This document shows positions 6,001 to 9,000 of a stretch of DNA of 10,739 nt, piece by piece. The stretch comes from a virus. Lineage: Duplodnaviria; Heunggongvirae; Uroviricota; Caudoviricetes. The stretch's first letter is position 1. Every line of letters starts with the position of its first letter. Position numbers: made by a program. Location of the stretch: the IMG/VR virus record IMGVR_UViG_2703719365_000002. One strand, given 5' to 3'.

Positions 6001-9000
6001 CGTGTCGTTGTCTCCGAAGTAAAACGGCTTGGCCTGATGCACAAACGCCCTGACATACGCTCTGAAACCGTCCACGTTTGGCGTTTTCAGTTGCGGGATA
6101 ATTTTCTTCAGGCGGCGTTTTCGTTTCTCGTTGACCGCAACAGCGTGTGGAAGTCTGTCACCGACTTCGGTGTTGTAGGCGTTCAGGAAGGATTCGTAGT
6201 CGATTCGTTCTGCCTTGCGACGTTCAGGTTTAACCTGCCCATCGCCATCCCCGTTAGGGGGTAAGGGGGTATTTGTATTTATTGTCTTTTGTATATTGTC
6301 TTTTGTGTTTAGCTGACTTGGCTTATACCCATTAGCCGACTTGGCTAATGTTTTATTAGCTGTTTTAGCTAATGTTAAGCTGTCCTGGCTAATCCACTGA
6401 GAAACCACCTTGTTCACTCCGATTTTCACGCCATCAGCAATGAGGAATTTACGCTCAATAAGCTGGCGCTTGGCAGCGCAAACATGAGTGTGATGAATAC
6501 CTGTCATGGCTGCTATCTGCGTGTTTGTGAGTCGATCCATCGGCTTATTGAATCCGTATGTCTTGCGCATGATAGCGAGCATCACCTTCAACTGCCGGAC
6601 GGTTAAATCAGCCATCAGCAGACTGTCGGTAATCTCGTTAGCAACGCGCATGAAACCATCTTCGGTATCTGCCACGCGATGCTCCACGACCTCCAGTTGA
6701 GGCCTGTAATCAGCTAACTTAACGACGCCCATGTTTCACTCCTGCTTTGGCTAGTCTGTAAACACCAACAAGGCGCTCTGCGAACGCCCTGTTATTTGCT
6801 GCGGCTACCACTAATCCCTCAGGTGAATCAGGGTGTCGAATCTCTTCTTTTTCCTGGTATTTCTTACGACGTTTTGTCATAATTACTCCTGTGGATTGAT
6901 CCAGTAATTCCCTCAGAATTGCATATCAATTTGCTTAAAATCCTCGGTGGCAGCCGGGGATTTTTTCTTTGTGATTTCATCAAGCGCATACTTAAAAGCC
7001 CTGCTAATCGGACTGATGTCTGATGCCATTCCGAAAGCACACAAGACCGAAGCAATAAACCGCCAGTCCGTTCTGCTTATCTTCGATTCATGACAGCCAA
7101 TCATCTTTGCCAGACCGCGCTGTGTAAGCGTTGACAGGTTGATGAGTAAATCTGTTTCTGCGCGATCAACGTCGCGCTGTGATAGTTTGCTGTAACTTGT
7201 TCGTTCCATTTCTTAAGATTTCCAATAGTGAATAGTTAGTTGAAAGGTATGCGTGGAAACGCATATGGCCTTAGTTGGTCAGATATCTTGGGACTCGCTT
7301 TTCAGCGACGTAGGACGAATGTCCGTTGTTACAAAGAGCGGCTCCGCTTATTAAGCGGCTTTGTGCTCCGGCGGGAACACGTCATCAAGACTTACTTTTG
7401 CGCCTAACTTGTTTAGACACGCAACAAGAGCACGGCATGTTTTAAGGTCTGGGAAGCGACGACCAGATTCCCAATGTCCGATAGCTCCCTGTGTGCATCC
7501 AACTGCCTTAGCAAGTGTTGTTTGAGAGATATTCAGTGACTCTCGATATTTTCGTAGGTTGCTCATATGCCCTCCATAGTAACCACGAATAAAAAATACA
7601 ATATGTACTTCTCAAATACAAGTAAAAATACACATTGTGCATGGATGGTTCCAGTACAGAGCGTAATAATAAGGACATGAAAATGAAATGGTATGAACTG
7701 GCTAGATCCAGAATGAAAGAGCTCGGCATAACTCAAGAGAAGTTAGCCGAAGAGCTAGGTATGACGCAGGGTGGAATTGGACACTGGTTGCGCGGATCTC
7801 GTCATCCATCTCTTAGTGATATTGGTGTGGTGTTTAAATACCTTGGTATTGATAACATATCATTCAACCACGACGGGACATTTTCACCTGTTGGCGAATA
7901 CTCATCGGCCCCAGTTAAAAAACAATATGAGTACCCTGTTTTTTCTCATGTTCAGGCTGGGATGTTCTCTCCAGAACTCAGAACCTTTACCAAAGGTGAT
8001 GCGGAGAGATTGGTAAGCACAACCAAAAAAGCCAGTGACTCTGCATTCTGGCTTGAGGTTGAAGGTAACTCAATGACCGCACCAACAGGTTCCAAACCTA
8101 GTTTTCCTGACGGGATGTTAATTCTGGTTGACCCTGAGCAAGCTGTTGAGCCCGGCGATTTCTGCATAGCCAGACTTGGTGGTGATGAATTTACCTTCAA
8201 GAAACTGATCAGGGATAGCGGTCAGGTGTTTCTACAACCACTAAACCCGCAATATCCAATGATCCCATGCAATGAGAGTTGTTCCGTTGTGGGGAAAGTT
8301 ATCGCCAGCCAATGGCCTGAAGAGACGTTTGGGTAAAGAGGATAGATGGAGTTTAATGGCCATGAGTATCAAGCGGTCAAAAAGAAGTTCATCTATTCAT
8401 TGAAAGCATAAGGCCATCTGAGTATATCCGTAATGATCTGGATATTGTCTATAACATCAATGACCGGACGATAGATATCGGTGAGCAGCGTCCTGTATGG
8501 CAGGGTGAGGCAGGTGAAAAAACGTCCTGCCATCAACAAGAATCAAGTGCATCCGCTCTCTGGACAGATGGAAAATTTATTGGATGCAAAAAGATATGAA
8601 ATAACACCTGTATAGCACGGAGCTTTCTCTGACCGATGCACTTGAAGTTGTTAGGGCTGACCCAGCCTGCTGTTTCTTTAGGTAAGAGAAAAGAGATTTA
8701 GGAGATGAAAGGTCGCAGAGGTGCGGCCTTTTTTATTGAGAGTGGATCTTGAACGGAAATTCTCAAGACTTGAGTCTTGCATGCAAATCAATTCCTGGAT
8801 AAACTCGATCTGAGTCAATAACTTAGAGAGAGAGCAAATGGCAAAGTCAAACGTTAGCGTGCAGGCATTCAAGGACTTCCTTGAAGAGCTTATGTCGCTG
8901 AACATAATGAAGGAGGCCACCGCTCGAAATTTAAAAAACTCATCCGCTCGCCTCTTAACGGTAGTCCAAGAAGAGGAAATGGGTGATGTTACTCAGCTTG

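Follow-up and report, generated by a model that had tools for sequence, protein, structure and literature searches.

The window analysed here is a 10,739-nt stretch of DNA from a virus of the Caudoviricetes (IMG/VR record IMGVR_UViG_2703719365_000002), and its replication genes contain a candidate replication origin. The early genes follow the order cI / cro / cII / small open reading frame (ORF) / O / helicase, and the origin thus lies in the early rightward operon past cro-cII and the oop region, where transcription would run through it. The O-like replication initiator gene (5911..6732, minus strand) was identified by ORF search and translation, Pfam and the RefSeq annotation of the best genome match. 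It encodes 273 aa, is identical to WP_000539354.1 (‘Eru2A’) and is of the HK97 gp54 type. Its origin-binding N-domain (aa 1–113; 6394..6732, minus strand) was delimited by domain alignment; it contains the Pfam domain Phage_rep_O (aa 19–113, E 5.8e-33) and a class-specific motif, TGIHHTHVCAAK, at aa 78–89. The neighbouring gene (4539..5914, minus strand) was recognised from ORFs, Pfam and alignments as a DnaB-type replicative helicase gene of the P22 gp12 / ‘Eru2B’ type, frameshifted in this copy. The initial annotation had described an origin at 6253–6393, with four 18-bp iterons and an AT-rich element embedded in the O-like gene. The four repeats and the AT-rich tract are present, but the repeats are 19 bp long. 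Moreover, the gene and the origin are read on the minus strand, and position 6253 falls inside a G/C palindrome (6249–6269) that follows the AT-rich tract.

The first iteron starts at codon 114 of the O-like gene, i.e., in the linker directly past the Phage_rep_O domain. Read with transcription on the minus strand, iteron 1 (6393–6375, ATTAGCCAGGACAGCTTAA) has a degenerate right arm, iterons 2 (6373–6355, ATTAGCTAAAACAGCTAAT) and 3 (6349–6331, ATTAGCCAAGTCGGCTAAT) are palindromes with perfect 7-bp arms, and iteron 4 (6326–6308, ATAAGCCAAGTCAGCTAAA) is degenerate and abuts the AT-rich tract. The array of four thus spans 6308–6393, with start-to-start spacings of 20/24/23 bp, and each 19-bp repeat (17-bp core) has dyad-symmetric half-sites in the format ATTAGC-N7-GCTAAT. 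When the window was scanned with a degenerate iteron consensus allowing up to three mismatches, only these four sites were found. They gave five matches, as one site matched on both strands, against 0.04 expected from shuffled sequences, and none of 200 shuffles reached five. The core TTAGC-N7-GCTAA, with at most one mismatch, matched four times against 0.38 expected. The array is therefore not a product of chance, and neither scan revealed a second iteron cluster in the window. On the plus strand, iteron 3 was called terminator-like by a promoter and terminator scan; this call was rejected as a by-product of dyad symmetry. Scanning the window for DnaA boxes yielded two 1-mismatch matches only, both far from the origin and not above chance, and the Rfam search returned no match in the origin.

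Directly after iteron 4 in the direction of transcription lies a 41-bp putative AT-rich unwinding element (6270..6310, minus strand, AAACACAAAAGACAATATACAAAAGACAATAAATACAAATA), delimited by composition, duplex stability and a tandem repeat finder. The tract opens with ACACAAAAGA (6299–6308) and contains a second CAAAAGA at 6285–6291. Its sense strand is strongly A-rich, and its GC content in 40-nt windows is 0.275–0.30, compared to ~0.5 in the flanks. The nearest-neighbour duplex free energy is −42.8 kcal/mol, compared to a window mean of −53.7 kcal/mol (z 2.7). The tract is the sixth least stable 40-mer of the window and, of the eight least stable, the sole one located in the replication genes. 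A small G/C palindrome (6249..6269, minus strand, CCCCCTTACCCCCTAACGGGG) forms the downstream end of the origin. This palindrome is kept in P22-, HK97- and phiES15-type origins, but not in lambda.

To score conservation, homologues were gathered by protein similarity to the N-domain, the 38 unique ones with less than 80% identity were kept, and identity to the window was determined for each codon position. In the N-domain, identity at codon positions 1/2/3 was 0.70/0.80/0.44, and in the spacer and inter-iteron columns it was 0.60/0.64/0.49. The iteron half-site columns, on the other hand, scored 0.93/0.90/0.96. Such conservation, blind to codon position, is the hallmark of a cis-acting site superimposed on coding sequence, and it shows selection on the half-sites at the DNA level. 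A search of viral contigs with a twin-iteron DNA pattern retrieved 120 loci, all but two of them inside O-like genes.

The arrangement is homologous to the origins of lambda and P22. In the lambda record, the four annotated iterons start at 39034, 39054, 39078 and 39101, which corresponds to 20/24/23 bp, and the iterons of the window, read with transcription, have the same spacing as those of both lambda and P22. The proposal that the locus mirrors lambda ori, with iterons in the O linker and an AT-rich tract next in the direction of transcription, was thus borne out, and the tract itself is homologous to that of lambda. The P22 RefSeq record carries a rep_origin annotation inside gene 18, where we found four TTTACC...GGTAAA repeats, an AT-rich tract and a G/C palindrome. 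The P22 tract and palindrome are 92% identical in nucleotide sequence to those of the window and their spacing is the same, whereas the iteron sequence differs. The nucleotide match to P22 is limited to window 6240–6316, with homology beginning where iteron 4 meets the AT-rich tract. Seven origins were then aligned, namely those of the window, P22, lambda, Cronobacter phiES15, Erwinia phage 49, Klebsiella phage ST11-VIM1phi8.2 and coliphage 4A7. They cover at least three iteron types, and the neighbouring gene encodes a DnaB-type helicase, a lambda-P-type loader or an AAA ATPase. The iterons aligned in register despite their differing sequences, and ACACAAAAGA at the start of the AT-rich tract was invariant in all seven.

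The O N-domain (aa 1–113) is 43% identical to both P22 gp18 and lambda O and 58.5% identical to phiES15, which also has TTAGC iterons; over aa 17–150 the O-like protein is 42% identical to lambda O. The C-domain (aa 161–273) has no similarity to lambda O, in agreement with the claim of a non-lambda C-terminus, but is 59% identical to P22 gp18 over 105 aa and 99% identical to CUS-3. In its intact form, the helicase shares 90% identity with P22 gp12. The description of the module as P22-like is therefore apt for the helicase, the O C-domain and the AT-rich tract, but not for the iterons and the N-domain. Judged by sequence comparison, the module is P22-like in its helicase, its helicase-recruiting domain and its unwinding element, and has its own origin-recognition unit composed of N-domain and iterons. 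Such a mosaic is explained by modular exchange, as expected among lambdoid phages. A further variant was observed in CUS-3 (CP000711.1), where the N-terminal part of the O gene (1682–2629) is unrelated to that of the window and an array of 12-bp repeats (TTCATGTGCGGC-like) replaces the 19-bp iterons. Here the domains have been cleanly swapped at the linker, which points to a different origin-recognition system feeding the same helicase.

The iteron sequence (TTAGC/GCTAA, compared to ATCCCTC...GAGGGAT in lambda) had been taken to imply a distinct initiator specificity, and the pairing of iteron class with a motif in the N-domain agrees with this. The motif (I/K)HHTH (window aa 79–83) was paired with TTAGC...GCTAA iterons in all 64 unique homologues, which span 50–100% N-domain identity, and the pairing holds though their C-terminal sequences differ. 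Loci retrieved by the AT-rich motif alone supplied other classes: ILPHK with TTACC...GGTAA (25 loci), LPVKR with lambda-type ATCCC/TCCCT (18 loci), LPRQK with the TGTCAC type (16 loci) and MAPTK with the P22 type (3 loci). Within this set, 77 of the 85 assessable new, non-redundant loci lay directly downstream of an O N-domain. The motif at O aa 79–83 (HHTH, LPHK, PVKR, PRQK or APTK) resembles a simple code by which the iteron half-site is read, which we put forward as a hypothesis. AlphaFold2 run on the single N-domain sequence (predicted local distance difference test score, pLDDT, 42) gave a weak hint that HHTH may begin a helix, and sequence and profile searches of the PDB returned no relative. 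Two IMG/VR contigs of the KHHTH/TTAGC class (L206 and L195) have at least six iterons rather than four; the additional copies are inserted upstream, and the register of the last iterons and the AT-rich start is preserved. The origins of 933W and P27 provide a parallel, as they contain six iterons (PMC7466680).

Window 5400–6900 is 99.9% identical in nucleotide sequence to the Shiga toxin (Stx) phages Nil2, 1717 and 2851 and 98.8% identical to coliphage HK97. The repeats are present, unchanged, in functional relatives, namely HK97 and the Stx phages 1717 and 2851. Window 6249–6456 is 100% identical to plaque-forming HK97, and the substitutions relative to HK97 are scattered across O and P with none in this segment. 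The records of HK97 and the Stx phages annotate the two genes as O (in HK97, ‘similar to P22 Gp18’) and P (‘similar to DnaB’). A prophage in E. coli O157:H7 strain SS TX 313-1 matches the entire window; its corresponding proteins are WP_000539354.1 and WP_001248388.1, designated ‘Eru2A’ and ‘Eru2B’, respectively (Llarena et al. 2021, PMC8044961). In that work the Eru2 module was labelled non-lambdoid and no origin was named (Llarena et al. 2021, PMC8044961). By its sequence, the module is a hybrid of HK97 / ‘Eru2’ type rather than a pure P22 type. One relative, phage vB_EcoS_phi330 (PV189401.1), has one G fewer at the equivalent of window 6257, in the G/C palindrome after the AT-rich tract, and its O gene is annotated as two pieces, a replication initiation O-like protein and a replication initiation protein. 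The missing G could reflect an error of sequencing in a C/G run, or the O gene could really be defective.

Taken together, the locus is very probably a lambdoid prophage's theta-type origin, which follows the lambda plan and belongs to the HK97 / Stx2c-phage (‘Eru2’) specificity class. From the homology with lambda O, O dimers would bind the four iterons at the TTAGC/GCTAA half-sites through the N-terminal Phage_rep_O domain, and the 20/24/23 phasing would bend and wrap the DNA into an O-some. Strained by the O-some, and aided by supercoiling and by rightward transcription from the cro-cII operon, the AT-rich tract would then melt. As suggested by the homology with P22 gp18 and gp12, the O C-domain would recruit the DnaB-type helicase of the phage itself instead of a lambda-P-type loader acting on host DnaB, and host primase and polymerase III would then complete initiation. 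The initiation scheme of lambda and P22 is established knowledge (summarised in PMC7466680 and PMC12663957).

Several points weigh against this interpretation. The binding of O, the unwinding and the recruitment of the helicase are inferred from homology. The literature searched treats only the lambda, 933W and P27 origins (PMC7466680), and no explicit description of, or experiment on, the TTAGC iteron class was found there. The stability rank of the AT-rich tract is only sixth among the 40-mers of the window. The LAKxAN peptide encoded by the iterons is in the same frame in 36 of the 38 homologues, so some protein-level constraint is mixed in with the DNA-level selection. Finally, the frameshift in the helicase gene makes the function of the origin in this particular copy doubtful.

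This frameshift had been missed when the helicase was initially, and in kind correctly, called DnaB-type. Relative to Nil2, HK97, phi330 and SS TX 313-1, one base is lost after window 5465, outside any homopolymer run (GGGGAAATCATCACTG to GGGGAAATATCACTG in gene sense). The gene is thereby split into a 161-aa N-terminal fragment (5429–5914) and a separate 274-aa C-terminal ORF (4539–5363), and the Pfam domains DnaB N and DnaB C are found on different ORFs. In SS TX 313-1, the best genome match, the helicase is without frameshift. The deletion is common to 4 of 620 complete E. coli genomes with this segment (7784, NZRM4169, Z1835 and Z1836). All four are independent O157 genomes with one copy each of the helicase segment, and in one of them RefSeq marks the gene as frameshifted. 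Because the helicase is frameshifted, the origin probably cannot fire unless the helicase is supplied in trans, and the prophage is probably replication-defective, with the cis-site and O intact.

We lean towards the view that the site is a genuine cis-element but a silent relic in this copy, where O would bind without a helicase being delivered and no replication would follow induction unless the enzyme came from elsewhere. This view qualifies the assignment as a lambda-plan origin and does not replace it. The truncation after 161 aa and the separated DnaB domains argue for it, as does the recurrence of the deletion in four complete genomes with a single copy of the segment, in one of which the gene is listed as a frameshifted pseudogene. 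However, the C-terminal ATPase ORF (4539–5363) has an ATG start and might be expressed separately, host DnaB might substitute, and the undamaged state of O and the origin suggests that the mutation is recent.

That O-binding repeats could serve mainly in regulation, i.e., autoregulation, titration or exclusion of related phages, with replication starting elsewhere, has some precedent, since cloned lambda iterons alone can inhibit the replication of an incoming phage (PMC3349717). Nevertheless, the adjacent conserved AT-rich tract and the exact lambda phasing fit an origin and not an operator, the window holds a single iteron cluster, and the homologous P22 region is annotated as an origin. For these reasons a purely regulatory site was rejected as the main explanation and is considered highly improbable. 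Least probable of all, and likewise rejected as the main explanation, is a repeat that only encodes a flexible LAKxAN linker and has no cis role, with the AT-richness coming from Lys/Asn/Thr/Ile codons: the repeats are indeed translated, in frame in those 36 of 38 homologues, and the linker peptide is similar among them, but third positions are conserved at 96% in the half-sites and at 44% in the folded N-domain, dyad symmetry is not needed for a peptide repeat, the 20/24/23 spacing is kept in lambda and P22 despite different encoded peptides, and the iteron class tracks a motif in the DNA-binding domain.

In the lambda-plan origin, the AT-rich tract is assigned the role of easily melted DNA. 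It is conceivable, although on balance we doubt it, that ACACAAAAGA, usually with CAAAAGA 7–8 nt later, is a sequence-specific element as well. The idea comes from its invariance across origins that differ in iterons, O C-domain and helicase or loader (lambda P, DnaB-type, AAA ATPase). The pattern would fit a common recognition site and may represent, e.g., a single-strand contact for a conserved part of the O N-domain or a host factor.

Other features were observed around the replication genes. An oop-like intrinsic terminator (6937–6964, plus strand), with a 12-bp stem and a T run, is antisense to the 3′ end of cII. Adjoining it is the conserved pO/oop sequence ATCAATCCACAGGAGTAATTATG (around 6873–6905), which overlaps the start of a 53-codon ORF (6719–6880) homologous to HK97 gp53. 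The layout of these two elements agrees with a published description (PMC3349717). Directly downstream of the helicase gene, an HNH endonuclease gene (3849–4460, minus strand) lies in a very AT-rich island (~3880–4490). Of the eight 40-mers with the lowest stability in the window, this island contains five, among them the two least stable of all (4445–4484, z 3.6; 4284–4323, z 3.2). The island is absent from HK97 and Nil2 at this position and looks like an inserted moron or homing-type element. The only two Rfam matches in the window scored above the gathering score, the isrK Hfq-binding small RNA (1239–1315, minus strand, 74.7 bits) and C4 antisense RNA (1130–1213, minus strand, 66.7 bits). 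Both are just upstream of antirepressor-type genes (343–1077 and a gene cut at the window start), and the region looks like an immI-like antirepressor control region.

The origin follows a standard lambdoid design that is already known in kind, and its exact sequence has been public in HK97 since 2000. The Eru2 module was recently labelled ‘non-lambdoid’, but its anatomy is that of a textbook lambdoid origin whose iterons belong to another class. The main value is for annotation, since the origin is now located for a module that is common among Stx2c prophages of E. coli O157:H7, in HK97-like coliphages and in many Salmonella phages. Two points stand out as the least ordinary, both of them hypotheses: the ACACAAAAGA element common to all iteron classes and the simple pairing of motif and half-site. 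If the prophage carries stx, its defect could affect how much toxin is made. Since Stx production reportedly depends on replication of the phage (PMC7466680), the combination of an intact origin and a frameshifted helicase in a small O157 lineage may be the sign of a prophage that is replication-defective and low in output. In addition, chromatin immunoprecipitation sequencing of the defence proteins Lamassu and OLD shows enrichment at the palindromic iterons of lambda (PMC12663957; bioRxiv 10.64898/2026.07.10.737580). A catalogue that lists each iteron class with its matching O motif could help to predict which phages trigger Lamassu/OLD-type defence, and it also supplies orthogonal origin/initiator pairs.

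Compared with known systems, the window origin is closest to the HK97 gp54 (O) / gp55 (P) unit and the ‘Eru2A/Eru2B’ unit of Stx2c phages. They have the same module and the same TTAGC-N7-GCTAA iterons, the origin being 100% identical to that of HK97, and differ from it by the helicase frameshift in the window copy. With the P22 origin (gene 18, with the gene 12 helicase) it shares the AT-rich tract and G/C palindrome, the gp18 C-domain, the gp12 helicase (in its intact form), the iteron spacing and the gene order cII-like, small ORF, O-like, helicase and nin region. In contrast, the P22 iterons are TTTACC...GGTAAA, and the gp18 N-domain (43% identical) has APTK where the window has HHTH. Like lambda ori, the window origin is located in the linker of the initiator gene and has four dyad-symmetric iterons at 20/24/23 bp, a homologous Phage_rep_O N-domain (42–43% identity) and an A-strand-biased AT-rich tract directly after the iterons, with CACAAAAGACA-TAT-ACAAAAGA common to both. 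The differences from lambda are in the half-sites (TTAGC/GCTAA instead of TCCCTC/GAGGGA), the N-domain motif (HHTH instead of PVKR), the unrelated O C-domains, the partner protein (a DnaB-type helicase, frameshifted in this copy, instead of the lambda P loader) and the G/C palindrome after the AT-rich tract, which is present in the window but not in lambda. Theta-plasmid iteron origins of the pPS10, RK2 and R6K class follow the same logic, with a winged-helix-type initiator on repeated sites beside an AT-rich unwinding element. In plasmids, the iterons are usually direct repeats located outside rep, and DnaA boxes lie close to them, whereas the sites in the window are palindromic, inside the gene, and without a DnaA box nearby. 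For the proposed ACACAAAAGA contact, the comparison is with DnaA-trios and with the contacts of Rep with single-stranded DNA in plasmid unwinding elements.

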